This document shows, piece by piece, positions 17,261 through 55,455 of a stretch of DNA of 64,000 nt. The notes under the pieces are model-generated. The model did not search any database. It worked only from the letters and a program-made list of their open reading frames with translations, and was not told where the DNA came from. Numbering within the stretch: position 1 is the first letter of the stretch; every line of letters begins with the position of its first letter. A program made the translations under genes and the position numbers. The stretch is from Eledone cirrhosa (lineage: Eukaryota), in contig OZ024740.1 in assembly GCA_964016885.1 (NCBI GenBank), forward strand, positions 119,784,001 to 119,848,000, given 5' to 3'.

Positions 17261-17353
17261 CACTAATATTTTTGTGTAATTTTGGTGGAGTTCGTTTATG
17301 TTTGTTGCCTCTTTGATTTGTCTGAACATTGCATCTTTTCTCTGTGTGGATAT

Positions 17354-20115
17354 AATGTCACCTATGCCATGCAAGCTACGACAGAAGCTGTGTCAGCATC
17401 ACAATGGCTCAAATCGAAAGGCTTCAATACTGGACATGTAATCAGTGCCACTTCTGTTCCAACGTATTCCGTGGGGATGCCCCACATTTCGATGACCAAT
17501 TCTCTACCAAGGACTTTACCACAACCCTCCAGGATTTCTTAAAATCAATAGCTTGGAATAGCTTTGCACGTGCCCTCTCTAATTTATTGAAAAACGTTTG
17601 CTCATCCAACAATAGGTCTGACTGGCAGGAATTGTTTTCGTTTTCTCTCATCTCTCTTCACGTACACAATGCGAATTCGGATTCCCTCATGTCCTCTCTC
17701 AAGCGGCAATTCCAGCTGTTTGAGTCTACCTCAACCACGTCTCGCCTCAGTTTGACATCGAGCCCGGTGTCCACCAACAGACAACCGATAGACCTCAAGC
17801 GAGCGGTCAATGCCAAATTCAGCGAATATGACTTTAAAGGGGTTGTCTGTCTCCTCTCTTCTCTGTTAACCCTCGCTCCGTGCAACTCTGATTCTCTTGA
17901 GCGACTGAAAGAGAAGCACGCATCGGCACCCCCAGATGATCAGCTACACTGGCCCGAAACACCAGAATACTCAAGACCGGTTTACACCACCGATATCATC
18001 AGAAAGGCGATTTCATCTTTGCCTGCTGGGTCAGGCGTGGGAATTGACGGCCTTCGTCCTCAACACCTCAAGGATGGTATCTCTTTATAGGCCGGTGATG
18101 CCGGACTCGAGCTCTCGGAGAGTCTGATTCAGTTTGTGAATCAGTTCTCTTCAGTGAACGTTCTCCCGTTCATCCACCCACTGTTCTTCGGTGCGAAGCT
18201 ATTTGGTCTCACCAAGCCCAATGGAGACCTGCGCCCCATTGTGGTTGGTTGCACCCTTCACCGTTTCACTGCAAAGGCGTGTTTGCTGTTGGTCTCCGAC
18301 TCACTGGCGGAGGAGTTTTCCTCCATCCAGCTGAGGGTGGATACCAAGTTGGGATGTGAGGCTGCTGTCCATGCTACCAGAGCCTTTACCAATTTGCCCT
18401 CCTCATCCCCCAAGGTTATCCTCAAACTTGACATCAGGAATGCTTTCAACTCCGTCAGCCGCGACGTCGTCCTTGGCTCAGTAAGAGAGAGGACGCCACA
18501 ACTCTACCACTTTGCTTGGCAAGCTTATCGGGAAACCTCCTACCTCTCTTTCAGTGACCAAATCATCACCTCTGCCTCAGGAGTTCAACAGGGTGACCCA
18601 CACAGGCCCACTCTGTTTGTACTGGGCATTGATGACGTCACCAAGATGGGGGTTGAGTTGGACCTCAATGTCTGGTACCTAGACGATGCTTGTTTGGGGG
18701 AACTCTGGATATGGTTCTCACCACTGCCAACAAAATGGTTGAGGAGCTTAGCCGCTGGGGTCTCCAGGTCAATAGCTCCAAATGTGAGCTCTGGATCCTC
18801 AACCACCCGGCTTCTCAACACCATCGGCTAATCGACCTGTTTGCAGAGTCCTTCTCTTCCATCGCGGTCCCTCCTCCATTGGCTTGGTGCTCCTTAGGAG
18901 CCCCAATCACAGACCTGGCCTTCAAGTCAATCTTCCAATCGAAGATGGTTAGTCTTGAACAGCTGCTGAAGAATATTGAAGTTATCGAACCCCATCAAGG
19001 TTTCTTAATACTCAGGAACTACCTGTCTATTCCTAAGCTTCTGTATCTGCTCAGGGTCAGCCCCCCTCACAGATTTCCATCCTGCCTCCAACGCTTCGAC
19101 GACCTAATCTTCGAGAGACTGAGTGCCTAGTTAATGTTAGACTCTCTCCAGAATCCCGCAATCAGGCTGCATTGCCCAAGCGATTTGGGGGTCTTGGTCT
19201 TTGTAAGTGTTCATCCGTCTCTCTCCCCTGATTCTTTTCTTCCACCCACACTTGCTCCACCCTGGTGAGCAGCACCTTCGACTCCCTCTTCATCCAGTCG
19301 GATCAGTTTTCAAGGTGTCGCTTACTATCTGCCAGTGCGAAATACTCAGACGACTGGATTGATGCCCTACCCGTGGCCAACTTTGGTTGCCTACTCAGCC
19401 TGGACGAACTTCATGTCTCCTTCGCCCTCAGAGTGAGAGCTGACGTCTGCATGAGCTTGATGTGCCGATGCAGCAAACTCCTTGACCCCACAGGACTCCA
19501 TGGTCTTTCTTGCCGCCTGAATGCCGGCCACTTTGCACGTCACACAGAGCTAAATCTCATTCTCAAGAGAGCTTTGGCATGGGCGAACATCCCCTCAATC
19601 TTAGAACCATCTGGGTTGCCCAGAAGTAACGGCAAAAGACCTGATGGCCTTACCCTGTGCCCCTGGTCGAGAGGCAGGTGCTTTGTCTGGGACGTCAATT
19701 TTAGTGACTCTTTTGCTTCTTCCCATATCCTGGATACTGTGGTTAGGAGGAGAGCCACAGTTTCCGCAGCTGAGCGGAGTAAGACCCTCAAATACAGTGA
19801 TCTGTCGGCCAGCTACATTTTTCAGCCTGTAGCTTTCGAGACGTTTAGGGGAGTCGGGCCGCTGACTGCGAGGTTCCTCTCTTCATTGACGGTTCGCCTA
19901 ATAGAGGTAACTGGCGAATCTCGTGAGGGTGATTGGTTGTTCCAGCGCATTAGCCTCACCATACCCGAGGCAACGCTGCGATTGTGCTGGCTTGCCTAAA
20001 AAATCATTAGAGAGGTTGCCTGGTACTCCTCGCGATGCTGCTGTCTTTTGCTCTGGTGTTGACCTCAGTTGTTCACCCCTTCCTTTACGCATTCTTTAAC
20101 ATTGCAACATTAAAA
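17354..20115 (+). mobile_element. CRE-clade non-LTR retrotransposon (RT plus restriction-like endonuclease), disrupted
   Basis: GIDGLRPQHLKD, GLTKPNGDLRPIVVG, GCEAAVHATR, KLDIRNAFNSVSR, SGVQQGDP, WYLDD; C-terminal CRC..H..SC knuckle, RHTELN and KRPDG...WDV...AFET RLE motifs; GC-rich; several stops and frameshifts. Confidence 0.9.
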
Positions 20116-24901: not shown

Positions 24902-25082
24902 TGCATATTTAGACACATACCCTTACCATCATCATTATCATTTAAATATTCATTATTTTACATCAGTTTTCCACACTAGCATGAGTTGGGAGCATTGTAC
25001 CCATCTAAGTCAGTTCTTATCCAGAATTACTTCTCTCTTAGATAGGTCAGGAGGACTGGGGAACTATATTTTGCTTGCACAT

Positions 25083-25128
<46 letters not shown>

Positions 25129-25140
25129 CAGGAGGAGTAG

Positions 25141-25189
25141 TGAGCTTTGATAAGTACCAAAAAGTACGAAACAGAGCTCTGTCAGTTTA
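25141..25189 (+). ncRNA. Type I hammerhead, U3-A8 core variant
   Basis: tgagct TTGATAA gtac-caaaaa-gtac GAAA cag-agct-ctg TC agttta; GUC cleavage triplet; stem I has two G-U pairs. Confidence 0.72.
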
Positions 25190-25322
25190 TGTCCCTAGTT
25201 TGCTGAACATTTAAATAAGTGACATGGTCTTCAAAATACGTTTAATTAAGCATACAGTGTATTGCAAAATACACTATATATACATTCATATATATATATC
25301 GGTATTTCAGAGCACCAATTCT

Positions 25323-25355
<33 letters not shown>

Positions 25356-25577
25356 TAATTACGTATCGAGAGAGAGAAGAAGAGATAGGCGATACATGTA
25401 GTTATTTGCCAATAGCATATGCAAAGGGTGCTCAATGCTTGTGCCTGCAGTGTTAAATATTAGAAGTGTTAATATCTAGTGGGCGAGAAAATCAGCAGAG
25501 CGGATACGCGTGGAGAAATATATACAGGAGAACAAACCGTTAAAACATGTTTATTTAAGATAGCACCTACGTACGTT

Positions 25578-25778
25578 TAGACGACGTGTATTTGTGTATT
25601 TATGTCTTGAGAAAATATTCAGAAGAATACAAATGGCTGGTGCGTGTTTGTACAATCAGCTCCAAGAAAAATGCGTGTTGTCGCTCTGCATTTTTTTTTT
25701 TCGGGAGTGTCTGTGTTATTTTTATGACGTCCATTTGTGACGTCAGAGCTATCACACGACAGGTGTCGCTTCGCTACA
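25578..25778 (-). repeat. 3' LTR
   Basis: Direct repeat of 30371-30569 (about 12 substitutions plus a T-run indel by eye); minus strand starts TGTAGCG; polypurine tract ggaggagggc at 25783-25792. Confidence 0.93.
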
Positions 25779-26272
25779 TATAGCCCTCCTCCAGATGACC
25801 AATCGATGAAGAAGTAAACATATCTAGTGAGAAGCAAAGCAAAGATAGGTAATAAACAAAAGAAATGTTTGCACAAGCAGCAAACAAAAGGCAAGGCACG
25901 CAAAAATGTAACACCAGAAACATGCAAAACAATCAATAAAATGCAGCATATCGTAAGAAAGACAAAAGCAAAGGGCTGCAACGAGGGAAGCTTAAATGTA
26001 CAAAGTTTGGCACAGTTTTTTTCCAAAAAGGCTCCAGTGGCCAGTTCATATAATAAAAGTTTGGAAGAGCTCTTTTGGCCAGTGGGCCCTTCGACCCTGA
26101 ACGTGTCGTGGTCTTGTATCTTGGTGATGGGGGGGGGGGGCAAAGAAACAGGTGTGTGTGAAAAAAAGAAAGATGGGAGTGTATGTGGCTCAGATGTGTG
26201 AGCATCTGTGTGGACCGGCAATGGTCTCTCTGGATCCCTTAATGTCTACAATGAAATGTTTATCAGAACGAG

Positions 26273-29080
26273 CTAATACACGGTAGGGTCTAGAGTACGG
26301 TTGTGTGAGGTGGTCTCACAGCATCTTTTCTTACGAACACATGGGTCCACGATGCAAAATCCCTCGGTACTGCAGATTTTACAGTTTGTTTCCTTGTACA
26401 CATCGGCGGCAGGTCCTGAAAATAAAAACGCAGACGGGATACGTAGGAAAGCGGATCTTGTGCAGCAAGATCGACAGGGGCTAGAGGAGCCCCATATAAT
26501 ATTTCGGCCGGGGAGAACCCAAGGTCCTCCTTCATTGGTGGCCGAATCCTCAAGAACACAATAAGGAGGTACTCGCTCTAACGCGTAGTCAGGAGAAATC
26601 CGTAGAGCGGCTTTTAGTTGTCGGTGGAAGCGCTCCACCATTCCATTAGATGCAGGATGATATGAAGTTGTTCGGATGCGTTTAGCGCCAATGATCTTCG
26701 TCAATTCTGAGAAGAGATTCGATTCAAACTGTCTTCCACGGTTCGTTGTAATCGTGGTTGGCACTCCAACGCGGGCAATCCATCCCGATACTAGGGCACG
26801 CGCTTTCGTTTCAGCAGTGATGTCTTTCAAGGGGATGGCTTCAGGCCATCGCGAAAAACGATCAATAACAGTCAATAGATAAGTATGACCACCACCGACT
26901 GGCCAAGTTCCCACGATGTCCACATGAATGTGCCGGAAACGGGCGTCCCGTGTACTGAAAGTACCGAGCGGAGCCTTAACGTGTTTATGGATTTTCGATT
27001 TCTGGCAAGCGATGCAGGAACGGCACCAAGCAGTAATATGGCGCCTTATATTTGGCCAGAAGAATCTGGCTGTTATGAGCTTTACTGTGGCAGAAGATCC
27101 TGTGTAAAGCAAGAAACACAGTACGACGACAATGGTTAGGCGGGACGAATGGTCTTGGTGAATCCACGGAAACGTCGCAGAGAATCTGTCCCTCTGCGGT
27201 GGACAATGGCAGGTATTTCAAATTACTCGTCGCAAATTCGGCTGATGTAATATCCAACAATTCCAGTGCAGGTTGGTCTGCTGCCAAATGATTTAAATCG
27301 ATGTCGTGGGATGATGCAATCGAACTGATCGACAATCGAGACGGGGCGTCAGCCGCTGTGTTCAATGAGCCTGGAATGTGTTGGATGTCGTTGGTGAATT
27401 GCAAGATAAAGTAGAGATGCCTTGTTTCTCTGGGCGAGTACTTGTCGGACTTTGCCCTTAAAGCGAAGGTCAAACATTTATGGTCAGTATCGATTGTAAA
27501 ACACCTCCCTTCGAGCATATGTGAAAAATGTTTCACGGACAGGTAGATGGCTAACAGCTCCCGGCCAAAGGTGCTGTAGCGAGTTTCTGCAGGCTTCAAC
27601 TTCCTGGAGAAAAATTCCAATGGTTGTTGGTGATCGTCACTACTCTGTTGTAAGACTGCACCCAGTGCAGTATCCGACGCATCAACACAAAGCGAAAGCT
27701 TGGCATTGGACACTGGGTGGGCCAGCAAAGATGCACTAGCCAATGCTGATTTGGTTTTTTGAAAATCCTCGAGCTGAGTCTGAGTCAAAGAGATTTCCTT
27801 CTTCTTTTTGCGGCAATTTTTTCAGAATCTCAGTAAGAGAGAAGTGTAGATTAGCACAATGCGTCTATAGAAATTTATCAGTCCTAGGAATTGTCGCAAC
27901 TGACGAAGTGAGGTCGGCGGAGGCAAATCCTCTATAGCCTGAACTCGTTGAGGGAGGAATCGAATACCCTCGGAGTCAATGACATCCTCCTAAAAAAATT
28001 CAGTGATTCCGCACTGAAAACACATTTTGTGAGATTTATTTGAACACTGTAATCCTTGAGTCGACAAAACAAAAGATTCAAATGACCTATGTGTTCTTCT
28101 CTGGAGGAACTATCAATAAGCAGATCATCAATATATGTGTAGACGAAGTCTAAATGATGAGTCACCTCATCCATGAACCGTTGAAAGGTGCTAGCAGCAT
28201 TCCTAAGTCCGAAAGGCATGGTAAGAAATTCGAATGATCCAAATGGAGTTGTAATGGCCGTTTTCGGAATATCTTCTTTCTTGAGAGGAATTTGATGATA
28301 GTCTTGCACCAAATCGAGCTTCGAGAAAATTTTACATCCCTGCAACGACGATGCAAAATCTTGCAGGTGTGGGATAGGGTATTTATCCGGGACAGTTATA
28401 GCATTTAACTTCCTTTAATCCCCAGTGGGTCTCCAGTCGCCAGAAGTCTTGGGTACCATGTGAAACGGAGAAGCCCAAGGGCTCGTAGAAGGGCGAATTA
28501 TGCCAAGCTGCAGCATGTGGTCGATCTCGGACCGTGCTGCCTTCAATTTGTCTGCAGGCAAGCGACGAGGACGTGAGAACACTGGGGCGCCAGTTGTAGA
28601 GATAAAATGCTCCGTTGGGTGAGTCGGTTCGACAACTCGAAAATTTCCCTGAGTAAGCTGTGGGAAAGAATTCAACAATGCATGATAGGGATTCCCAGCA
28701 TTAGCGATGAAAAAGGTCGGGCTAACCGTTTGAAAATTAGCTTTCTGGCCACGAAGAGAAAAATCAGTAATACCGTCTACTAGGCGTCGGCCACGGACGT
28801 CCACCGTCAATGCAAAATGGTGTAGAAAACCCGCTCCCAAGATCGGATATGGTAGGTCAGCAACTGTAAAAATCCATTTGAATTCTCGTTGAAGATTTCT
28901 GAATTGCAGAGGAAGCGAGATTTGTCCAAAGGTCCGTATCGGCGAATGATTGACAGTAGATTCATTGATGACTCAGGAGTTTCTTTAACACAGTTCCCGG
29001 CCAAATGCTGCAGGAGGCTCCCGTATCTACGAGGAAAGATCTTCCGGACAGGAGGTCCTCAATAAAGAAGTGGCGGTTTG
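26273..29080 (-). pseudogene. pol: Gypsy pol (PR-RT-RH-IN), frameshifted
   Basis: Fragments in ORFs 28415-28840, 27932-28345, 26985-27788, 26273-27112 and 26290-26559. Confidence 0.92.
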
Positions 29081-29110
29081 GGTGTGTAGCACAGAGATCA
29101 GCTGCCGCCT

Positions 29111-29870
29111 TCAGTGACTCTGGTCTACATTTGCCGAAGTTGAATAGTTACACGGTGGCCGGCAGTGTTTTGCTTTATCGGCAAAGGTGGCATGATACCA
29201 GCAATAAGACGAAGTGCTGACGGGCAATCTGGCGTTACGGCGTGAAGTCGCGAAGGAACGCGAACGACTTCTTGGCCTACTCTCCCTACATGATTTCGCA
29301 ACTTGACGCGTCAATCGCTTTCAACGTGGCATCCTCGTGTGTCGAGGCGGGTTGGTTCCGAAAAGTCGAAGAAGCAACAAGCGAGTCCGACGAGGTAGCT
29401 TTCCTAGAGAATTCCACAATTCGATCGGCAGACCCAGCGATCTGCTCCACCGAGCTCGAGTCCACTATGGTAGCCAATATAATCTCTACATTGTTTGGCA
29501 AGCGAGAATTTTTGATAAATGAACTATCCTCATCGGGCGATTCACTGAGGTCCCGAATGTTGCGTAAAAATTCGGACGGCGACCTGTCGCCTAAACACTC
29601 GTCCTCCAATAATGCACGAAACCTGCTTTCAGCAGAACGGCAGTTTCTCCTTAATATTTCCGTCCTCAATGAATCATACGAAGTACCGGTTGGCGGGTCC
29701 GTTATTAAATCTTTCACCGTGATGGCGAGCGACGAAGGTATACCACTAATCAAAATATTGAGTTTCTGCTCTGTTTTAATTCCATTTGCAGCAAAATATA
29801 CATCCAGTTGCGCAAATCAGAGCTTGGGATCACCGGAGAACGCAGATAAATTAGGACTACTCATCATTAG
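29111..29870 (-). pseudogene. gag: Gypsy gag, disrupted
   Basis: ORF 29286-29753 (VKDLITDPP...YDSLRTEIL...LGDRSPSEFLR) and CHCC motif in ORF 29111-29314. Confidence 0.85.
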
Positions 29871-30354
29871 CATGTATCAGTTCCACATAAAAAATACTAA
29901 ATGTTATCCAAGTAAAGAAATGCAACGCGTGTTAGATGTTTGGAACAACGGGAAAACAACACAAATTTCCCTCAACATCCATAAAGAAAGAAGAAATGCA
30001 AAATCCGGAATCGACAAGTCTCAATAATTCAAGGCAGAAAAATTAAATGTTTTCTTTTTTTTTTTTTTATTGGAGAAGGAGATGGCATCACATGATGCGT
30101 CTCAGCCAATCAGATGACTGCATTTCGAAGAAGAAAGACAATTGGCGGGAAAATTGGGGGATCAGTCAGCCATTGTGAATATTTTTTTTGTTAAACGAAC
30201 AATTTTCAATTTCGTTATTTTCGCATAGTTGCAAGAAATAAAATATCAGTTTCGTCAATTTTTTTTTCTATGTTTCTCTAGAAGTTTTTAGAAGTCTTTT
30301 AGAAGTTTTTCGAAGTTTTTTTCAAAGTTTTTTAGAAGGCTGTGTAATGCATAA

Positions 30355-30367
30355 TCGGGGTCAACCA
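30355..30367 (-). other. Primer binding site, tRNA-Trp-like
   Basis: TGGTTGACCCCGA 3 nt inside the 5' LTR; matches the Trp PBS TGGTGACCCCGA with one extra T. Confidence 0.75.
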
Positions 30368-30370
30368 CTT

Positions 30371-30569
30371 TGGACGACGTGTATTTGTGTATTTATAACT
30401 TGCAAAAATATTCAGAAGAATACGAATGGCTGGTGCGTGTTTGTACAATCAGTTCCAAGAAAAATGCGTGTTGTCGCTCTGCATTTTTTTTTCCGGAGTC
30501 TCTGTGTTATTTTTATGACGTCCGTTTGTGACATCAGAGCTATCACACCACAGGTGTCGCTTCGCTACA
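30371..30569 (-). repeat. 5' LTR
   Basis: TG...CA termini; direct repeat of 25578-25778. Confidence 0.93.
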
Positions 30570-32514
30570 AACGTTTCGCCCGACTGGGCTTCTCAATGGC
30601 ATACAAAATTAAAAAGCGTTCCTTACATGACCCCTAATGTGTTTCATAGATAAGTTCACATCACAGTCCATTCTTCGTAAAAAACATGTATTGATTTTGC
30701 AGTAGGTCAATAGTAAGCCATACCTATAACCGAATACGCGGTGGCTTTGAAAGGGTCAGAAATAATAGTATAGAGAATCGCACTAAGGAACACGGCCGCA
30801 TGTCAATTACACAAGCGATAGTATTGGAAGGTTACTACATAATAAGGACCACGCCCCCGGTGACAGTGACCACTGTAGCCTACTACAAGATCAACAAAGG
30901 CGATGGCCTACTACCAACGCCTTCCAACCAGCATCTTCCTATACATAAAAGTAGCAGAAGGAAGCCGAATGCACCCGAGCATAAGGCGAAAGGAACACGT
31001 AACAGGCTACAGCACAATAACATGCATAAGAACGTATAGCACAACCCTTAGCAAACATACAAGACACGGAATCGCCACCGCAATGTCCTATGGTTCCATT
31101 CTCCCTACTCTCGGAGTGTGACCTCCGACTTACCCCGGATATTCTTCGAAGCCTTAGAGAAGAACTTCCCACGAAACCATAAGTATAGGAAAATCCTTAA
31201 TAGGAACAATATAAAAACATCCTTCTCTACTACTCCTAACCTAGCAGACATCATAGGAACAACTAATCACGGTAAGATCACCAAAACACAGCGCCTTAGC
31301 ACCGATGCACCTACACCTGATAACAACTATATCGGCCTTAACGACTCCCTAGCTGCACTCAATAGTGCTGGCAACAGCCACTACAGACGCATCCAACATA
31401 ACCGCGACACGACTGGGGAATATGCAGGTGACCCGTACGGATAACTCAATGACAACAGAAGGTGTGGCGGCGTCGGGAATGATAATGGTACTACTCCGCG
31501 CACAGTGGGTTATAATGGTACCAATGACAGGTGTAGGGGCGTAGGTAACAACATAGATAGCAATAATAATAGCCTTACATTGGGAACTAGAAGAAACTGC
31601 GACTGAAATTGCAACTGCCGTGACAGGGGATGCTGCCCCGTTAGGGGAAACTGTCTGACTGAGGGTTATTTATAGATGCACCGTAACTAGCCATAATAGC
31701 ATTAAACATTATATAGGGGCTACCTCTGGCCTGTTCAAATATAGATTTCGAACACATTTCCACTCTTTCGCAAACAAGAAACTAAGACACTCCACTTCGA
31801 TCGCGAATTACATCACAGCATTAAAAGACTCAAACACCAGCTTCTCCACACCCTGGGAGATTGTCGGCAGGGCAGCACCGTACAATTTCAAGAGGAAATG
31901 CGAGCTTTGCCTCATGGAGCTTTACCATATCATAACGGCACCGCACGAACTCATCAACAGTAGAGCAGAAACAACGATAAGCTGTACGCACCGCTTAAAA
32001 ATCTCTTACTCCAGATGGAATAAGAATAAGGCATGAGAACCGTAAACCGGGTCACCCTGCACCAAACCTTAACACCCCGGCGGGCAGGCATGGTAAAAAA
32101 AACATCCGGAAACTAACCATGCATCCTAGACCCGGCATGAATCGACCCCGGAGGGCAGGCGTAGCAAACAAACATCTGGAAACTAACTTTGCATCCCTAA
32201 CCCTGCGTGAATCGACAATGGTAAAGCAGTAATAACGGATAAAAGTAGCCTGGGGAACATTGCTCTAACACCGGCTAGAGTTATATCCCTTGACCTACTG
32301 CAAAATCAATACATGTGTTTTACGAAGAATGGACTGTGATGTGAACTTATCTATAAAAGCCATTAGGGTTTTATAGATAAGGAACGCTCTTATAGATAAG
32401 GAACGCTTTTTAATTTTTTATGCGCTTGTGACGCCCAGCCGGGAGAAACGTACGTAGGCGCTATTTTAAATAAACATGTTTTAACGGTTTGTTCTCCTTT
32501 ATATATTTCTCCAC

Positions 32515-32549
<35 letters not shown>

Positions 32550-32550
<1 letters not shown>

Positions 32551-33315
32551 GAGGTGTGTCAGAAAAGAAACAGGATGTGGTCATAAAAACAATATTTCAA
32601 ATCAAAACTACAAGTTTGAGTCTAATGCACTTATCCATCCTTTTCTGCTATGCTTCATGCATTCCTGGAAATATTATCCTGGGATTCTTTGCAACTACGT
32701 TGTCACAGTCGTCTTGATGGCTTCCACATCCAGAAAATTGGTGGTACTCAAAGATTCATGACTTTCCCCAGCATGTCTGGTTTGGTTTTAAGATGCATGG
32801 GGATTTTTTGACACACCTGCATATGTCATTCCTCCTTGTGATTGTACAGCACCATCTTCGCATAGACCTTCTGCATGCCTAAATCTTTAGTGATAATCTT
32901 CCAAACACTGATGTGGTTCAAACTCAGTTGAGAAATCAGCTGATGATCGTCAAGTACACATGCCTCAAGAACTCATGTTAGCTTCAGTCCTTCTCGTTGA
33001 AGACTTTTCACTCATGGGGTTGTCTTTGAACCTTTTGTGCCACTTAAAAACCCATGAGTGTGATATCATCTCATGTTGGTATACTTGCTGCAGTATTTTG
33101 AGTGCTTCTGAAGTAGTTTTTCCCAGCCAGATCAGAAATTTCAAGTTGGTTCGTTGTTCTGTGCCCTTCACTCGATGGCTTAAAATTGAGGAACTGTTAA
33201 TAAAAACACCTGATAAAACATACAATAGGTGCAAAAGCTGAGATTGCAGTGATGTACTCCCCTGATATTAACACACAGGGCACATTAGGTCCTGTTAGTT
33301 TTCTAATACATTTCA
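32550..33315 (-). mobile_element. Mariner transposon, internally deleted
   Basis: TA-flanked imperfect TIRs (cgaggtgtgtcagaaaagaaacagga / tcctgttagttttctaatacatttca); ORF 32965-33234 EQRTNLKF...GKTTSEA...VFKWHKRFK (HTH). Confidence 0.85.
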
Positions 33316-34834: not shown

Positions 34835-34908
34835 GTGTCATCATCATCATCATCATTGTTTAACGTCCATCTTCTATGCTAGCATGGGTTGGACGGTTTT
34901 GAGAGACC

Positions 34909-36155
34909 ATAGCTGAATCTATGGTAGAACTAGAGAATAAATTCCAAACCTGGAAGCAGGGACTAGAGAGAAAGGGCCTCAAAGTCAACATGACAAAGAC
35001 TAAGGTCCTTATAAGTAGACGAGAAAACAGAACCCAGATCCCCTCAGGGAAATGGCCTTGCTCAGTATGTAGGAAAGGTGTAGGTAGGAACTCCATTCTT
35101 TACCCCAAATGCAAACAATGGGTACACAAGAGATGTAGCGGGATCTCAGGAAGCTTAATTAAGAATGTAGGATTCACATGCAGCAGCTGTGCTGAAACAG
35201 CAAGCAAACAGCCACAGGAAACAAGTACCACCAATCTCTGGGAGGGCCCTGTAGAAACAGTAGACAGCTTCTGCTACCTAGGTGACCGAATTAGCAACGG
35301 AGGTGGGTGCTCAGAAAGTACAATAACTAGGGTAAGAACGGGATGGAAGAAGTTTAGGGAACTACTACCACTGCTAGCTGCAAAAGGCTTCTCCCTCAGA
35401 ATGAAAGGCAGACTGTATGATGCGTGTATCCGAACAGCGATGTTGCATGGTAGTGAGACCTGGGCGCTGAAGGTGGAAGACTTACGTAGATTAGAGAGAA
35501 ACGAAGCCTGCATGCTCCGATGGATGTGTAACAGTAATATACGTGAACGACAAAGCATAAATGAATTGAGAGAGAGACTGAGCATAAGAGGAATCAAATG
35601 CTGCGTGCAGGAGAGGCGGTTACGCTGGTATGGACATGTGATGCGTATGAAGGATGACAGCTGCATAAAAAGGTGCAGAGCACTAGAAGTTGATGGAAAC
35701 CGCGGAGTGGGGAGACCCAAGATGACTTGGGATGAGGTGATAAAAGCCGACCTTACCCAACTACACCTCTCAAAGTCAATGACACACGACCGTGACTTCT
35801 GGCGTCACGCAGTAATACAGGGTACCCGACCTCCCATGGGTACATGCTGAAGCATATAAACAATATGCCCCCCCCCCCCCCCCCACCGCAAGGTGGTCGT
35901 GGAGGTGCCACGGCAAAAAAGCACCCAGCCCACACTGTAAAGTGGACGTGTAGGCGCCACGAAAAAGCACCCAGCACTCACTGTAAATGAGGTTGGTGTT
36001 AGGAAGGGCATCCAGCTGTAGAAATCAAGCCAGATCAGTTCCTGTATGAGCAAGGCATGGTCAGCCGACCAGACACTGCCCACAACAGGACAACCCGTCT
36101 AACCCATGCTAGCGTGGAAGAACGGACGTAAAACGGTGATGATGATGATGATGAT
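34909..36155 (+). mobile_element. 5'-truncated RTE LINE, relatively young
   Basis: Uninterrupted 309-aa ORF 34921-35850; 3' UTR repeats; (GAT)n tail; appears inserted into an older antisense tail (34838-34900 and 36156-36310). Confidence 0.92.
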
Positions 36156-37802
36156 GTATTGCTCATACAGAACTGTTTCTGGTAGGTTTTCTACAGCTCG
36201 ATGCCCTTCCTAACACTAACCACAGTTAGTGTGACTGGGAGCCTTTTTACCATGTCTCCTACATGACCTCTTTACAGTGTGGACTGGCTGCTCTTTGTCG
36301 TGTCATCTAGGAAAAAGTATATAATTCAAGGTGAAAAAGTTGTTATTTTCATTATGGCCACCATTTCATTGTTTGCAAACCAAAGCATAAATCAATCTAA
36401 ACAATCGATTATGGATTACCAACTGTCTATTTTGGTAGAATTATGGAAGACATAAAACTAATTATCAGAAGGGAATTTTCTTTGTATAATTTACAATAAA
36501 GTACAAAACATCTTTATAGCTGTCCTGTTTTAAGGAGGTAGTCAAAACTATACCTTATGATATGAAGAATGTTTTAACCGTGAGGGCAGAAACAAATCCA
36601 CTAGAAAGAGGTGTGAAGCATTTGTCACAGCATAAGTAGATCAAACTAATGCGAACCATGTTGCTAAATACAGTTAAATCCCAATATTGTGAAAGTTACA
36701 GTGTGGCCATCTTGCCAGACTTGGCTCATAACAGGACTACCCAGTAACATGGCTCTACTATGTGTAAGGCTTGGTGTGGCAAACTGGCCTGACTTCCAAA
36801 TTATGGTTCTGATGTAAGCAGGGTATGGTGTGGCCAACTGGCCACATCCTCCACATAACAGTGCCACCCAGGGCCCCACTATGAGTTAGTGTTGGTGTGG
36901 CTAATTGGACAGACTTCCCTCATAGTGGGACGATTCAGCTCGCAAATTATGGTTCTGATGTGAGCAGGGTATGGCACGGCTAACTGGCCAGACCTTGTCA
37001 CACTGTAAATATGGTTGGTGTTAGGAAGAGTACCCAGCTGAGCAAGATACAGCTCTGCCAACTAGCCAGACCTGTCTCATGACGTGGGTGAGTCATCTAA
37101 CCCATGCAAGCATGAAAATATAGACACTATACAGTAAGGGCGATGATGATAATATATTTTTCACATTAAAATTTATCTGGATTATGTTCAAAATTATTTG
37201 GATATCATCAGTGAACTCAGAATGCAAAGAATCAAAAGAGATTCTACAAAACAGCATTGTCTGTTTCTCTAATAATTCTGCCAATCCACAGCTGGTACTT
37301 TATTTATCATCCCTGAAAACATGAATGGCAAAGCTGACTTCAGCATGATTTTAGTTCTGAGTTCAGAGAAGCAGAAGAAATACCACAAATCTAATGCTCT
37401 AATGACTCTTATAGAGAATAATACAGAAATTGCATAATATGTATTAATACATGTTAGAACTTTTCTGTGTCCTAAAAGGATTAGATGAACATTCTTTGTA
37501 GGAAAAGAATATAATCTATTGTGTCAATTATAGCAAATTGTTTGTAGTCCATTTAGCATAGTTACAGATGGATGCTCTTCTTAATGCTAAACGGCATAAA
37601 ATGGAAATCATAGTGATATATATTATTAACTACTTACAATGCATTGGCTGCAATATGGTTTGTATTTATTCATCCACACCTTTTTCTCTCTCTCATGCAC
37701 TCTGCCCTATTTTTTTCTATCTGTTTTTCCTAGCATATGAGATATGGTTATATTTTTCATTTTACAGCAGCAGTTATTTTTGTACACCTGACTATATTTC
37801 AT

Positions 37803-38862
37803 ACCAGATAGAAAAATGCGTACAGCAAAAAAAAGTAATATTGTTGGAATATAAACCTTTAAAAATACAGGACAAGAAACTAAAATAAAACTTTAAAAGA
37901 ATAGGACAAGAGACTAAGATAAAACTTTAAAAGAATAGGACAAGAAACTATGATAAAACTTTAAAGAATTGGACAAGAAATAAAAAATTTTACAATAATA
38001 TTAGTGGCAACATTTTTATTGGTAAAAAATCGAGTTCCACATTCATAGGTCGTCGTCAGACCGGGGGGATCATTTGATCCTGGTTTGAACACCAATTGGG
38101 CCATAACCATACCCCTATTTCATCAGCGACATGCCTCATGTGTCATGCATAATGTGAATGGACCCATGGGTCTATGAGCACAGATCTTGAGCAGCAGCGG
38201 ACGGTCTTGTCGTCCCGCTCATCCTTGATCTTGACCAACCCGTCCATCTTCTCCTTGCATCTTGTCCTTCAGTTCAAGTCCGGCAGTCCAGATGAATACG
38301 TGCCACAGCTTTCTGGTACAGGAAGGAGGAGCAGGAGGACTGGAGGGATGACGGGACAGAGGGAGGGAGGACCGGTGGTTGAGGGAGGTGCCGTAGTCGG
38401 TGGTCAGAGTCGACATCTTGTCCCGGTCGTCTTCTCCATCTTCGTCTGGTGTTGCGGGACCAGAAGTGCAATCTTGGAGGAGACCTGCAGCTGCATCGGC
38501 CAATTCTTCTTGCAATGGTCATTCTGACGGAGTAGAACTGCTCAGCCAACCAACCCCAACCAGAACCAACCGCTCAGGGGCAACGCACAATGAGAGCATG
38601 ACAATTATTATGCACTAATCAAGAAGATTAGCACAGGAAATGAATAAAAAGATTTTGCCACTAATATTATTGTAAAATTTTTTATTTCTTGTCCAATTCT
38701 TTAAAGTTTTATCTTAGTTTCTTGTCCTATTCTTTTAAAGTTTTATCTTAGTTTCTTGTTCTATTCTTTTAAAGTTTTATTTTAGTTTCTTGTCCTGTAT
38801 TTTTAAAGGTTTATATTCCAACAATATTACTTTTTTTTGCTGTACGCATTTTTCTATCTGGT
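37803..38862. repeat. 208-bp inverted repeats (37803-38010 and 38655-38862) enclosing a GC-rich 644-bp insert
   Basis: Arms are reverse complements with 3 mismatches by eye; each has ~3.5 copies of a 34-bp unit ggacaagaaactaagataaaactttaaaagaata. Confidence 0.93.
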
Positions 38863-39147
38863 CTACTATTTTTTAAGGCAATGCAAGCAACAATGCAAGC
38901 AACAACTATCTAATAATTAAATGATCATAGTGAATTACTGACAAGTGATTGACATTTTAAAGTTCTTTTGAGTATAATTGCAATCTAGTTGAGGCAACTG
39001 GCTTAATGACAAAGCTAGTAAATCATGAATGCATTTGAGATGATTAGTGCATAATAGTGAATTGGTGAAACTTGTGCATTTCAATGGTGTTACAACAATA
39101 GATGTAAGTTATATAGTAGTAATACTTTATCATTTTAACTTTTTAGA

Positions 39148-39495
39148 ATGGACAAAAACCCATGCAAAGCAATGACTTTGACTGCAGTGATTCTCTCCAA
39201 TTTACTTACAAAGCAAAACGGGGTCAAATACCTTATCATCTCTGATAAAATGCCCATTGAATCACTGAAAATCGGATGCATGGAATTCCTCATAAAATGC
39301 ACCTATGATTCGGAAGCCATCACATATATCAATGGATATAGGGAGTTGTTCACACTGGAAGACCATCACTTCATTTGTTATCTCCACGATTATCTCAGAC
39401 ATCCAATGCCATTGATGAGAGGTGATCCAATGTGTGAGCATGTAACTAATCTTATAGAAGTTGTTATCGACCACCTGGCTTTTAGTGACATTTGA
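39148..39495 (+). CDS. Orphan 115-aa protein of unknown function
   Basis: ATG-initiated non-repetitive ORF; preceded by a 43-nt GTAAGT...TTTTAG intron (39104-39146); AATAAA at 39581. Confidence 0.5.
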   Translation: MDKNPCKAMTLTAVILSNLLTKQNGVKYLIISDKMPIESLKIGCMEFLIKCTYDSEAITYINGYRELFTLEDHHFICYLHDYLRHPMPLMRGDPMCEHVTNLIEVVIDHLAFSDI

Positions 39496-39675
39496 CTGAT
39501 TTAACTGATAATGATGTATTTTTAAAAAGTATGTGTACATTCTTGTTACTATTTTAAGGCAATGCAAGCAACAACTATTTAATAAAATTTAAATTTAAAA
39601 ATGACCATTGTGCATTACTAGTATGATGACATTTTATTAAGTCACAAAATTAGTCAGTCAGCCATAGAACAAGGA

Positions 39676-40465
39676 TCAGGTGGCAAAAACATTGGCAAAA
39701 ATGGGTGTCAATTTAAGATTTCCAACATTGTTCAAATGAATCATATCTGGTTTGAAGTCAGATTTGTCAAATTTTGACCAATTTTCAATGTTGTGAAGAT
39801 TGGGCAAGTTCAATTTTTGAATCATTTCTTTCATGCAGTAATTAAACTTTTCCAAACGAGAATTTCTCTTGCCCAAGTCATTTTTATTTTCAATTAGTGG
39901 ACGTGGAATGACACCACTGTAGAAAATGGGTGTACAGTGGTGCTTTTCCGCTATTTTCTGTAGCCTTGCAAAGAGACTCTTCCCCTGTTTTTCCGGTTTT
40001 GTGCCTCGAATGGGCACTTTGTCCTTAATTTACAAATAAATGATTAATAAAAAATACTTGGGCAAAAATTATTGTATTACTTTGCACAACTTTGTAGTGC
40101 CAACGGTGCGACGAGGATTCAGATCGTTAGAGCCGACATTAACCACCAATACTTTTACAGAAGGACAACAGATAACAATGTTGGCGATTAACATTACCTG
40201 GCCCTGACGGGCCCCAGGTATACAAAATATCTAAGTATTTTTGTTGGTATGATAAGTAAATACATTTGAATTAATATTTTTATACCTTCTGGTCATTCGA
40301 TTTCGCCACATTTCTAATTATGGATTTGTAAAAACTGGCATGAATGTGAATTTGATTAGTCCAATTGCCCGATTTTAGTGAAAAGTTTTGATTCGAAATG
40401 GAAATACTCCATTTCCGTGCCATGGAAAAAATGAATAAGCCGATCAAATAGCCGCGAAACATCAT
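39676..40465 (-). CDS. Three-exon SGNH/GDSL hydrolase-like gene (exons 40465-40286, 40230-40081, 40023-39676)
   Basis: Phase-0 GT-AG introns of 55 and 57 nt join one open frame (~225 aa) with block I-like KSIIRNV, block II IPGA, block III VVNVGSND, SGVIPR and block V DMIHLN; start codon uncertain. Confidence 0.8.
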
Positions 40466-40512
40466 TTGTAATTAAGCGAAATTAGTGGATGCAAATCTCA
40501 GAAAATATTGTA

Positions 40513-40862
40513 CACTATTCGCACCTATCGCACTATTCGCACCTATCGGTACAAAAATATAGCGCACTATTCGCACCTATCGGTACAAAAAATCGCACGA
40601 CTGTTAATAATACTAGAAGTGCAAACTATCTGTTGAATACCTGGTATATGAAGAGCAACCGATACGATCGGTCGGCGATCGGTCTTGATGAAGAATGAAG
40701 TGAAATTTTGGTCTGGTTGTTGTCATCGATGTTTCGCAGAGATGCCGGCACGAACAAAGGTGTCAGTGACACAAAGTTGTCCGCTTGAACAAAGGTGTCG
40801 GTCCGACAAAGGTGTCAGTCAGACAGTGTCACAGTCGGTGCGACAAAGCGATCGATGCGATT
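40513..40862. repeat. Two short-period arrays (cactattcgcacctatcg at 40513-40590; gacaaaggtgtcagtc-like at 40750-40862)
   Basis: 17-18-nt units seen directly; the last right-hand units (tcggtgcga, atcgatgcga) are complementary to the left unit. Confidence 0.7.
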
Positions 40863-41019
40863 AAAAAAAATTTAACTCACATGTTTACCTATATTTTCGC
40901 AAACTATTGATAGATTGGTACAAAAAATAGCTTTGATAATAAACATAAATTTTTAACGAAGTATTTAAAAAGCATTTTAGCAGTGAAAAGTGAAGTAATG
41001 TTTCACACTGACGCACGTA

Positions 41020-41100
41020 GGGCCGTTCAGAAATGACGTAGTCAATTAGGAGGAAGGGATTCGGCGATTTGACTACATTTGACTAACGTAATCACAATCA
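41020..41100 (+). mobile_element. Possible solo PIF/Harbinger-like terminus
   Basis: ta|gggccgttcagaaatgacgt resembles recalled Harbinger-type TIRs; no partner end found. Confidence 0.35.
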
Positions 41101-43169
41101 CAAGAGTTCCGTCACGCTTACTACTCACTCACTTGAACACAAGATTTATCAGCAAACTTTGATTATAAACTTTTTCCCGCTGGACCAAATTTATAGATTT
41201 TTAAGCCAAAAGATGCGTAATAATCTACTGTTCATGCTCATATAAGTTTTATCTCAGTTAAATAAAGTAGAGCCATGCTGTACTGTCGTAAACAGACGAT
41301 TGCCAACGAAAACAAGACCACAACAATATTACTAAACGGACTACCATCCGTTTAGGATATATAAGCACACAAGCAAAGGAGCTGAACCTAAAAGCAATCA
41401 AGCAAACTGAAACAAGGCTCACAAATATTTTGGAGAATTTCATAATGCTGACCAAAACAGAACACAGCACATATAATTTACTTGAAGTGATTGTAAATAT
41501 AATTGTAGTGTAATTACGAAACTGTTTGTGACATGACTACTTAGAATAAATAAAAGAAAGGAAGAAAGTAACACAAATTACACTGGAAAATGAGGTATGT
41601 GAAGAAATAATTAGTAATATTATTAAGATCCTTAAAAAATACAAAGAAAAGTGATGAAATGCTCCCCACCCTCAGGGATAATTTATAAAGGGAAAGAATA
41701 GTTAGCAACACTAAAATGTTATGAATCTTTGAGCGTGTGTGACTATGTGATCACTTAATTTAGTGACTCCCCTTTCTCTCTTACTTACTTTCTCTATATT
41801 TCACTCTCACTCTAACTATATTTATTTACTCATCTCTTTTTCTATCTGTCAATATGTATGTGTGTGTGCATGCAATATCATCATTGTCATCATGTATTAT
41901 ACTTTACCAGAGCCTCTCTGACAGATCATATTCTTCATCTTCAATAGCATGGCAGTGGCTCTCTTGGAGAAAGGGATATTGTGAGGGTTTGCCATTAGTC
42001 TCACACTGCAGCACAGACTGTTCTGAGAAAGAAAAAGAAAGAGATATCAACTCTAGTAGTTGACTTTTACTTTATTTTTTGAAGGCAAATGGATGAAAAG
42101 GATATGAACCAAAGATGAATAGAATATGAGCCTTCTGCAATATGGTATATCAACATTGGTTTTGAATGTGTCATCTCATCTGAGAAAATATGAAATATCA
42201 GTTCAGATGTCAATACTTCTTCCCATATCCTGTCCAAGATAAATACTCTACTCTCAACAAACTTACATTTTATCTCTGACCCTCAGCATGTGTTTTTTAA
42301 GATGCATTTCATATTCATACTTGCTCAGTCATCTCTCTTACACCCAACAACAAATGACTTTAATACTCACTCACTTTCTCATCTCCCTGACGCTAAGCAT
42401 ATTTATCCAATAGGCCCTACAAAACTTATTCTATATTTGGAGTTTCATATGTCAATGTTAAGTAGCAATGTGGTCCTTTGTTCTGCTATATGCTCTCTCT
42501 GATATGTACAGAGACAGAAAAAGTGGTTCTATTCAATGCAAGCAATATACCTGAGAAATAAACTAGCAATTATTTTCTTGTCTCAGGTATTTATTTGTGA
42601 CATTATCTATCCTTAGTTCAGATGTTTTTGTGGTCAAATTTGCCTTTCATGCTTTTGAGTTCACTAAAAAATGTTCCAGTCAACTATTGAATAGGGCAAC
42701 ATAAAATTCCTAGGATCTTAGATATGAAGAGCATTATAATAGAAGAAAACTGCAGAAGAATTAAATGCAAAGGCAACCATGGCGGGATTTGTTCTCAGAA
42801 TGCAAAACGTCATAACTAAATATTACAAGGCATTATGTACAAATCTCTACTAATTCTGCTTAAACAGCAATGGAGTTACACAAAGGTATAAAGATAGCAT
42901 GAAACAAAATTATTAGCTTTTCTTTGTTTTTTGTTTTTTGTTGCTTTTTTTTTTGTTTTGTACCTAACAAGTTTCAGCAATGATTACTAAATATGGCTCT
43001 ACAGCTTCAGAGTTATTACAGTTATAAAAGTAATTTCTGAAGTTTGGAAATAATATGTATGTATCTATCATCATCATCATCATCATCATCTTCGTTTAAC
43101 GTCCGTTTTCCACGCTAGCATGGGTTATCTTTCTATCTAGTTCTCTCTTCCACTGTCTCTCTCTCTCTG

Positions 43170-52486: not shown

Positions 52487-55455
52487 GTGTATGTGCAGAT
52501 ATTTTTCCAACACATAGGGCCTGTTAGAGAAGAAAACTCAAATTCTTTATTTGTTATATGTTGGACTGTTTCATCTTCACAACTGAAAAGAGGATAATAG
52601 CCCTAAAATATGTCAAATTACACTGGGTAAAATATTACTTTATTCATATTTTCTACTGGCTTTTAAAAAAGCTTATCGGTCATTTACTACACACACACAC
52701 ACACATATATATATATAAAGGAAACAAACAGAAGATAAGTGTACTTGAAAAAGTTTGAAAGATTACACATGGAAAATATGTTGGACCCTTCTTTAATCTC
52801 ATGTATTTAATGAGGACATTATTAATAAATGCTAGCAATGAATAGGTACAAATTTTCATGTAACCACCGGGTTCTTTCCCACAGTATGGCACCACAGGCA
52901 AGTATCCTTTACTTGAGTATCAGATTATTTACCAATATCATGTGAGTGGAATTTGGTAGTGGGGATTTGTCGAGAAACCTATATATAAAATGATGGACTG
53001 AATATGTACACGTTTTTCCCCCTTTTTCTCCCAATTTTTCCTCTTCTCATTGTTTATCTTTTTATTTTATCTCCTATTTCTAGCTCTATCTTCTGATGAA
53101 GGAGTAGTTAAGACTCTTTCCTGCTATTTTAAGTGTTAAACTAATATATTTCTTCAATGTACTGTGTTGTTTGCTTTGCTATTTCTGTTTACTTTATATA
53201 TATATATATGTGTACTAAGAGAGAAGCTAGACGTCAGGTGTACTTAGCACGCAGGGAGGCAGAGAGTAGGAGGTTTGCCAATGTTCTGCGACGGGAAGAT
53301 CAGAGGCGTGCGGTGTTCCACATTGCAAGGCAGTGTGTCAATGCAAATCAAGATGTTGTTGGAGATAAATGTGTCCGGGATGATGCTGGTGTACTTAGTG
53401 TCACGAATGATCAGAAAAAGGAGGCCTGGAAATGTCATTATGAGAGACTGATGAATGTGGAGAACGAATGGGAGAGAGAGAAATTACCCTTGGTAGATCC
53501 GACAGAGGGACCAGCTATTGAGATTGACGAATATAGGGTCCAAGAGGCGATTAGGGAAATGAAAAATGGTAAGGCGGCCGGACCATCGGGAATAGTTGCT
53601 GAGATGCTGAAGGCATCAGGGGACGTAGGCACTAAACTAGTTGCACACGTCATCAATCAGGCTATATATGGTGGTGTCATACCCAAAGACTGGTGCAGCA
53701 GTATTCTCATAAATTGCTACAAAGGTAAAGGGGATGCTTTGGAGAGGAGCAATTATAGGGGTATAAAACTGATAGATCAGGTTATGAAAGTGGCAGAAAG
53801 GATTTTAGCACAACTAATTAGAGAAAGGGTCAAACTAGATGAGATGCAGTTTGGTTTTGTGCCTGGGAAAAGTACAACAGATGCCCTCTTCTTGGTGAGA
53901 CAAATGCAAGAGAGGTTCTTAGAGAAGAATAAGCCACTATACTTAGCCTTTGTTGACCTAGAGAAGGCCTTTGATAGGGTACCCCGATCTGTCATCTGGT
54001 GGTCCCTAAGGAAGCAAGGTGTTGAGGAATGGCTTGTAAGGACAGTGCAAACTTTGTACAGAGGTACTCTCAGTAAAGTCAGGGTAGGAATTCCAGATAC
54101 AAGTAGGAGTACATCAGGGTTCGGTCCTCAGCCCGCTCTTGTTCATTATAGTCCTCCAAGCCATAACAGAGGAGTTTAAGACTGGCTGTCCATGGGAACT
54201 TCTCTATGCTGACGATCTGGTTCTTATAGCAGAATCAGTAGAGGAGCTAGAGAATAAATTCTGGCTATGGAAACAGCAGTTGGAAGCAAGAGGACTGAGA
54301 GTGAATCTAGCTAAGACAAAAGTGTTGATGAGTAGAAAAGAGGACAAAACCCTGATTCCGTCAGGGAAATGGCCATGTTCGATATGCAGAAAAGGAACTG
54401 GCATAAACTCTATAAAATGCACACAATGCAGATCCTGGGTACACAAGAGATGTAGTGGGATAGCAGGCAAACTAACAGGTAGGGAGAGATATGTATGCAG
54501 TAGATGTACAGGGAAATTAGACAGTAGAAGTCGCACTGATAGACACATTTTTCAAATGCAAGAGGGCGCTATAGAAGTGGTGGATAGCTTCCGGTACCTA
54601 GGAGATCAGATTAGCATGGGAGGAGGGTGTTCCGAGGCCATAGTATCTAGAATAAGGACGGGTTGGAAGAAGTTTAGGGAGCTGCTTCCTCTGTTGACGA
54701 AGAAGGGTTTCTCCCTGCGTACGACAGGCCGGTTGTATGATGCCTGTGTGAGGAGTGCGATGCTGCATGGTAGTGAGACATGGGCAGCAACCGCAGAGGA
54801 TATGCGACGGCTGGAGAGGAATGAGGCAAGCATGCTCCGTTGGATGTGCAGTGTAAATGTGCGTGAACGACCCAGCATAAATGTGTTGAGAGAGAGACTG
54901 TGTCTGAGAGGGATAGAATGTAGTGTACGGGAGAGGAGACTGAGGTGGTATGGACATGTGATGCGCATGGAGGATGACTGATGGGTGAAGAAGTGCCAGG
55001 AAATGCCAGTTGAAGGAAGACGTGGTAGAGGTAGACCACGAAAAACATGGGCGGAGGTGGTGAGAACAGACCTCAGATCATTGAAGCTCACGGTGGAGAT
55101 GACGAGGGACCGTGACGAGTGGAGAGATGCTGTGCTGAATAAGACCCGTCCCACCCTTGCAACCAGGGAAAAGTGGACGTAAAATGATGATGATGATGAT
55201 GATGATGATGTGTGTGTGTGTGTGTGTAGTAAATGACTGATAAGCTTTTTTAAAAGCCAGTAGAAAATATGATGGGCAAATGAAATAAAACAAAACAGAA
55301 TAAAGTAATATTTACCCAGTGTAATTTGGCATATTTCAGGGCTATTATCTTCTTTTCAGTTGTGAAGATGAAACAGTCCAACATATAACAAATAAAGAAT
55401 TTGAGTTTTCTTCTCTAACTGGCCCTATGTGTTGGGAAAATATATACACATACAC
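52487..55455. repeat. Inverted duplication (arms ~52487-52703 and ~55209-55455)
   Basis: Arms are reverse complements with scattered substitutions and one insertion in the right arm; inner ends are (CA)n/(TG)n. Confidence 0.88.
53209..55210 (+). mobile_element. 5'-truncated RTE LINE, second subfamily
   Basis: ORFs 53157-54179, 54139-54981 (LLYADDLVL) and 54985-55182; one frameshifting deletion near 54088 and one stop; very short 3' UTR and (ATG)n tail. Confidence 0.93.

Follow-up and report, generated by a model that had tools for sequence, protein, structure and literature searches.

A probable internally deleted Helitron-like element with an HLE2-type full-length partner and a long inverted arm near its 3' end in Eledone cirrhosa

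Helitrons are described as moving by a rolling-circle chemistry in which a nick at the 5' end and unwinding by the helicase are followed by a second nick and a circle (PMC13085455), and the ends described for canonical Helitrons are a 5' TC and a 3' CTRR lying between A and T of the target (PMC4067079). As presented in the HELIANO survey (PMC11417382), DUF6570 is a marker of HLE2 proteins and UCH is typical of the HLE2 subgroups c and d; its supplement already counts HLE2s in cephalopods, and in 404 genomes it found nothing similar to the proto-Helentron of Phytophthora infestans. NADAR domains are reported from retrotransposons (PMC12477816). Here we place into this context a compact cassette within a 64,000-nucleotide stretch of Eledone cirrhosa DNA, the whole of which is called the window. 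A previous sequence-only reading had taken the cassette for part of an unrecognised, possibly virus-like, mobile element. Our analysis identifies it as very probably an internally deleted non-autonomous copy, on the minus strand, of a 12.6-kb Helitron-like transposon with a RepHel of the HLE2 clade and TC...CTRR ends at A^T, likely moved in trans by rolling-circle (peel-and-paste) transposition. The identity is Helitron-like because of the ends and the full-length partner, which also settle the class that the earlier reading had left undetermined. The cassette is neither a virus, nor a host locus, nor a contaminant; it is a member of a known superfamily and apparently an undescribed variant of it (Table 1).

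Table 1. Features of the element in the window (positions counted from the first letter of the 64-kb stretch).
Feature	Position	Strand	Remarks
Whole non-autonomous Helitron-like element, 3554 bp	37804..41357	-	5'-TC...CTGG-3', between A and T
Terminal arm, ending in CTGG (37807-37804) plus target T	37803..38017	-	Inverted-repeat search
34-bp subrepeats of terminal arm	37851-37980		
Loop between arms, 630 nt	38018..38647	.	Family-specific, low-complexity open frames
Inner arm, repeating the element's 3' end in inverted orientation	38648..38862	+	Includes CTGG and following T
34-bp subrepeats of inner arm	38685-38814		
First direct block flanking orphan	38864..38959	.	Contains a motif found next to the inner arm of each of the four families
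Orphan ORF, 115 aa, antisense to element	39148..39495	+	Predicted 43-nt intron upstream
Second direct block	39547..39636	.	Contains facing AATAAA signals
SGNH-hydrolase half of NADAR-SGNH cargo gene	39676..40320	-	In-frame fusion to RepHel start
First RepHel codons (MARKW...)	40321..40423	-	~9-kb internal deletion cuts at ~40321; compared with G000:C28:42.94 Mb copy
Short-period arrays, 18-bp and 17-bp units, CpG-rich	40513..40825	.	Upstream of RepHel start, within the 5' region of the full-length element
5'-terminal hairpin	41332..41355	-	Immediately behind TC

The boundaries are defined by alignment of copies, in which similarity ends at ~37803 and ~41360. The cassette had been thought to end at 40862, and copies align 500 bp further. 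The minus strand of the window copy reads A|TC...CTGG|T. Among the 5' ends listed, A|TC is found on the minus strand in 27 of 27, and CTGG|T is abutted by 49 of 50 modules, the sole exception being a mis-oriented match. A target-site duplication, which the sequence-only reading had wanted looked for, is absent from the ends of the window copy, and the flanks of other copies are often (TA)n, again without duplication. One copy (L033) lies inside another repeat, and two of 29 paralogous loci, with the same flank variant, run uninterrupted through A^T; these two empty sites are identical letter for letter to the flanks of the copy around A^T, and the other paralogous loci are further variants of that repeat. 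Another copy, L004, is missing 4 flanking bases. The boundary could lie one base over, as CC...CTGGT inserted into AT^, which is also compatible with the empty site. L004 and L033 share their A^T insertion position, within two variants of a high-copy repeat (2393 candidates; L306-L334), which suggests an insertion hot spot.

The element is one of many. A search of this 3.0-Gb animal genome with a 2-kb query gave 625 first-look candidates, of which the best 40 were scored and all 40 match at 93-100% over most of the query; the inverted-repeat module as query gave 644 candidates. Mean identity is 98% over 3 kb in 17 aligned rows, in which the window is counted twice and the best-scoring copies bias the sample toward young ones. 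Shorter copies derived by other internal deletions are frequent. The earlier suggestion of a recent insertion holds, and the insertion belongs to a dispersed multi-copy family.

The full-length partner was reached by tracing weaker SGNH matches to a copy that runs on into a RepHel gene. With the RepHel part as query, about 20 near-identical loci were found among the best 40 of 86 candidates. A copy at G000:C28:42.94 Mb is complete at both ends and spans 12.6 kb, and the window copy corresponds to it with ~9 kb removed, the deletion having joined the RepHel N-terminus to the SGNH gene directly after the G-D of G-D-S. The 12.6-kb element encodes a RepHel with DUF6570, Rep, PIF1 and UCH regions, a predicted spliced NADAR-SGNH gene and the orphan. 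It could thus be confirmed that the cassette belongs to a large DNA transposon with cargo genes, and the linked transposase for which a search had been proposed lies between the same ends in long copies. An unbroken RepHel frame was found in none of the long family-A copies (the family of the window element) examined. A sister family, B, is 88% alike in the helicase region, and its best copy, on C13, carries a RepHel-UCH frame of 1904 + 507 aa with one in-frame stop between (2412 codons). In Pfam this protein matches Helitron_like_N (1.5e-26), PIF1 (3.2e-20), DUF6570 (9.2e-18) and UCH (2.2e-10), and an endonuclease domain is absent. Over 794 codons, the A and B RepHels differ by 157 synonymous-only versus 92 amino-acid-changing codons, an excess of synonymous change.

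Database relatives of the RepHel number 98, among them nematode, insect and sponge proteins, at 33-48% identity, and Helentrons with an endonuclease, at ~25%. The RepHel falls inside an endonuclease-less HLE2-type (Helentron-side) clade with SH-aLRT 96, and four canonical RepHels of the same genome, used as outgroup, group apart with support of 100; this is a quick tree of 100 Rep regions, with 3 short rows dropped, in which long branches meet near the family. The outgroup came from a PF14214 genome scan that returned mainly other RepHels, its 30 fetched loci having no match to the DNA of the element. Near-identical canonical RepHel matches (L073-L100; C16, C19, C20, C27) lie on the same strand at ~100-150 kb spacing, which suggests very large tandem arrays. 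Rep motif 2 of the element's RepHel reads FWRLEYQQRGAPHIH, so that the HLE1 marker G-L-P is absent, and the HLE2 markers DUF6570 and F/Y-x-R before motif 2 are present. The protein has G-A-P in motif 2 and UCH in place of an AP endonuclease, where a strict Helentron has G-S-P and a C-terminal endonuclease.

Additional families are recognizable by their ends. Family B is represented by 11.2-kb elements at G000:C13:18885149-18896352 (L155) and C10:33.07 Mb, in which NADAR-SGNH and the orphan were not seen and the loop holds a different low-complexity frame. Family E (L276-L285, e.g., G000:C1:3557513) is non-autonomous and ~1.7 kb long, with the same hairpin loop, an inner arm and a GTAA 3' end. 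Nested in one long family-A copy (L141-L143, G000:C28:136.46 Mb) is a family-B derivative whose 5' end is doubled, and doubled 5' ends also occur among the listed TC-stem-loop matches.

The termini of these families share an architecture. The 5' hairpin of the window copy has a predicted energy of -8.2 kcal/mol (z -4.8), with none of 200 shuffles equally stable. At the 3' end only a 3-4-bp stem is found (z -1.0; 29 of 200 shuffles equally stable), and the 16-20-nt palindrome of HLE1 type is absent. The TC-stem-loop pattern has 572 matches in the genome versus 27 for a reversed control, and the 100 matches listed comprise four different perfect stems with one loop. Four families (A, B, D and E) have this loop in common on different stems, and all four carry an inner inverted arm of 150-215 bp about 1 kb inside the element that includes the T following the 3' end. 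The arm is present in 4 of 4 family-D loci, in 2 of 4 further family-D loci among the matches listed, and in 9 of 9 family-E loci, two of which have common flanks; in family E the end is GTAA, not CTRR. Each inner arm matches the end of its own family, the A and B arms being 9% apart and the B arms identical. When 30 loci were drawn by their 5' end alone, 16 had an inner arm within 1.5 kb and 14 were uninformative; a 3' end lacking an inner arm was found in none of the 30. The RepHel-bearing copy at C1:73.64 Mb has the terminal arm and lacks the inner one. The repeat had been noticed from the sequence alone as a 208-bp module; it is real and 98% complementary in the window, and each arm measures 215 nt, with 3.9 copies of the 34-bp unit. 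The inverted repeat is a family-wide feature of the 3' end, neither cargo nor a MITE.

We rejected homogenization of the arms copy by copy, as arms from the same copy are no closer to each other than arms from different copies. In family A the arms differ by 1.6% within a copy versus 1.5-1.7% between copies, with 4 of 79 variants shared, and it follows that they are not re-made at each jump. One of 46 family-A copies has the loop between the arms in flipped orientation; a second apparent inversion (L025) proved to be a mis-oriented match and was dropped. Among 80 metagenome relatives the arm and hairpin architecture was not confirmed. Long inverted repeats downstream of RepHel in L191 and L192 are without CTRR ends and look like separate MITEs, and the TC-hairpin that L174/L177 have upstream of their RepHel is a candidate end only.

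Long copies contain the part missing from the window, a predicted five-exon NADAR-SGNH fusion gene. NADAR (PF08719) is matched on two of three exons with E 7.9e-8 and 33.2 bits versus a cut-off of 35.1, and the SGNH half (Lipase_GDSL_2) with E 0.037-0.24, under cut-off. S, G, N and H blocks are recognizable in the SGNH half, and the long copies between them show all of the G-D-S, G, N and D-x-x-H blocks. Four NADAR-SGNH copies were examined, three of which were modelled and one of which is open for 335 aa, with Asn replacing the Asp of D-x-x-H. In the window copy S, G, N and D-x-x-H are kept. The SGNH gene predicted there is a chimera of the RepHel start and SGNH that has lost NADAR and the GD of GDS. 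As had been read from the sequence, short candidate GT-AG introns exist (43 nt at 39104-39146 on the plus strand; 55 nt at 40285-40231 and 57 nt at 40080-40024 on the minus strand), and removal of both minus-strand introns leaves a 211-aa open frame; what had passed for the first SGNH exon is the start of RepHel. No spliced joint for these introns was found in contigs of 3 public runs, and no RNA dataset is listed as containing the stretch, neither of which is informative on expression. Of 50 SGNH loci, 45 have the window-type chimera, with an open frame in 26, and open frames at ~2% divergence need not be a sign of selection; the truncated fusion gene of the window copy is likely inactive.

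Pfam on single window exons returned nothing useful. Protein searches with SGNH exon 3 and with a read-through NADAR/SGNH stretch gave no match, both being weak searches that required shared 5-residue words, and PDB sequence searches gave chance matches only. A host parent gene for NADAR-SGNH was not found among the best 40 of 99 candidates. Metagenome contig L191 has an SGNH-like ORF (2182-2820, minus) that precedes an HLE2-type RepHel by ~4 kb. In 47 of 60 loci the orphan frame is open, and a search of 1.84 billion representatives gave no homolog; BTB-type clusters in Atlas at 0.85-0.89, with recognition under threshold, provide a weak lead, and its single-sequence fold is unusable (pLDDT 41). 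The orphan lies between two direct blocks and has left no trace in the stretches of families B, D or E examined, which suggests a later addition to the family. We infer that the element can do without its cargo, the NADAR-SGNH gene and the orphan.

Several smaller observations of the sequence-only reading stand. The facing polyadenylation signals are there (AATAAA at 39581 on the plus strand, TTTATT at 39633), the duplicated intergenic blocks are ~74% alike, short-period arrays lie toward one end (40513-40548, 40754-40825), and a repeat scan found no microsatellites inside the element. Retention of CpGs holds for part of it: observed/expected is 0.75 overall and 1.48 in 40280-40865, but 0.31 in 39001-40000, and window positions 25001-33000, outside the element, reach a comparable 0.74-1.18. 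Most of the 64-kb window consists of repeats, and no gene of the host was identified there. By eye, broken Gypsy-type LTR retrotransposon frames, CpG-rich and gag-, protease-, RT-, RNase H- and integrase-like, occupy 25600-30000 (minus); broken non-LTR reverse-transcriptase frames with the look of a C-terminal restriction-like endonuclease occupy 17350-20000 (plus); and RTE-type LINE fragments lie at 10200-11900, 34900-35850 and 53100-55000. Left of the element, at 36688-37073, are six diverged copies of a 35-50-nt unit at a spacing of 54-79 nt.

These observations can be combined with known Helitron chemistry into a proposed mechanism. RepHel from a full-length copy would nick A|TC beside the 5' hairpin and unwind the strand 5' to 3' until a second cut at CTRR|T, and the freed strand would insert at a new A^T. 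The last 215 nt of the displaced strand could fold onto the inner arm into a long stem with CTRR|T at its base, and fold prediction of the module places the end of the element at the stem base. Whether this stem takes the place of the short 3' hairpin of canonical Helitrons as termination signal is, in our estimation, evenly poised. NADAR enzymes reverse ADP-ribosylation of DNA. It could be speculated, as a tentative and on balance unlikely proposal, that these families form an undescribed animal rolling-circle subtype, with an HLE2/UCH transposase, TC/CTRR/A^T chemistry, a start at a 5' hairpin with conserved loop, an end at a fold-back stem of 150-215 bp and a NADAR that strips ADP-ribose from DNA intermediates or proteins as counter-defence. 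Counted against our main explanation, a Helitron-like copy that probably moved in trans and may end at such a stem, are the copy at C1:73.64 Mb without inner arm, the GTAA end of family E, the non-homogenized arms, the broken RepHel frames, the possible one-base shift of the boundary and the architecture not being confirmed in the 80 metagenome relatives.

The same Helitron could carry an inner arm that has no function, as a relic of reverse self-insertion or self-templating whose likeness to the end is kept up by occasional recombination between the arms. We regard this as possible, if somewhat doubtful: PMC5148889 proposes such self-insertion, in opposite orientation, for Fusarium Helitrons, the inner arm has CTRR plus T as a real 3' end does, and the flipped loop shows that arms do recombine, but four families with different loops and stems have all kept the arm, ~1 kb from the end, and it is found in 16 of 16 informative short derivatives. 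Improbable, in our view, is a reversed element of DINE-1/Helentron type, in which the inverted-repeat module would be the 5' end, the hairpin the 3' end and RepHel reversed ("HLE2-reverse"). TC, CTRR, the A^T target and the reading direction of RepHel all agree on the minus strand, and neither a TT target nor a short repeat pairing the two ends of the element was found, even though an HLE2-type protein would fit such a reading, DINE-1 is described as having an inverted repeat at its 5' end and a palindrome at its 3' end (PMC4067079), and reversed ORFs are described for FoHeli4/5 (PMC5148889).

The 215-bp arms with their 34-bp subrepeats also resemble terminal inverted repeats, so that a MITE or foldback element (37803-38862) might by chance lie beside host or viral genes, or the stretch be a contaminant. 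This is hardly credible, as the sequence that follows the inner arm downstream is the same in 40 of 40 loci, no target duplication surrounds the element, copies are spread over many large contigs, and the stretch is covered in three public runs from a single study. Our preferred reading remains an internally deleted Helitron-like copy with a partner of HLE2 type.

Taken by itself, the window locus is a single, decayed member of a many-copy family. An HLE2 protein combined with HLE1-type ends in an animal bears on the evolution of Helitron end recognition, and the covarying 5' hairpin and the conserved long inner arm offer a handle on how rolling-circle transposition starts and stops. Annotation would mistake such elements for MITEs or for orphan genes. 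Finding NADAR on a DNA transposon would add to the reports from retrotransposons in PMC12477816. In the literature we found no report of NADAR on a Helitron and, the accounts in PMC13282606 and PMC12001565 included, none of a long inner arm; the search covered literature, and Repbase or Dfam may hold these families.

Comparison with known systems places the element between described groups. It has the features of the superfamily, with Rep (HUH) and a Pif1 helicase in an autonomous partner with the same ends and no target-site duplication. With canonical HLE1 it has in common the 5' TC, 3' CTRR, A^T target, lack of duplication and non-autonomous deletion derivatives, but its transposase lies outside the HLE1 clade, its strong hairpin is at the 5' end and its 3' palindrome is weak or absent. 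From HLE2 (Helentron/Helitron2) it differs in being without short asymmetric end repeats, a 3' hairpin or a T^T target. HELIANO subgroups c and d, enriched in UCH, are similar by description in having DUF6570 and UCH without AP endonuclease, but are mainly from lungfish and axolotl, and such termini do not figure in that account. FoHeli3-5 of Fusarium oxysporum (HLE2-reverse; PMC5148889) are likewise described with an HLE2 protein, a 5' hairpin, no 3' hairpin and a length of 9-11 kb, but these fungal elements carry asymmetric repeats of 13-16 bp at both ends, have TGCCT/CTCCTGT as termini and, as described, lack an established target. The fish Helitrons with texim genes (PMC4021074) also carry a spliced SGNH hydrolase gene, whereas that of our element is predicted to be fused to NADAR, downstream of an endonuclease-less RepHel; because no similarity to the pipefish RepHel-lipase protein P0075 was detected, the SGNH is probably a separate capture.

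By description, the element resembles the oomycete proto-Helentron, which joins an HLE2 protein to HLE1-like ends. The accounts of the Phytophthora infestans element (PMC4067079; PMC11417382) give it an endonuclease-less HLE2 RepHel with DUF6570, A^T insertion without duplication, a CTRR-type 3' end and a 5' stem-loop, and families B and D end in CTAG, the window family in CTGG. It begins with TT, however, and has ~12-nt inverted repeats near both predicted ends, whereas our element begins with TC and has arms of 150-215 bp, both downstream of RepHel; it is reported only from Phytophthora and has SET/TIR cargo, versus a RepHel with UCH and NADAR-SGNH cargo here. Strict membership in HLE1, Helentrons and proto-Helentrons is excluded by at least one tested feature each. 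A proto-Helentron-like combination, reported in these accounts only from an oomycete, now appears in an animal as several recently active families.
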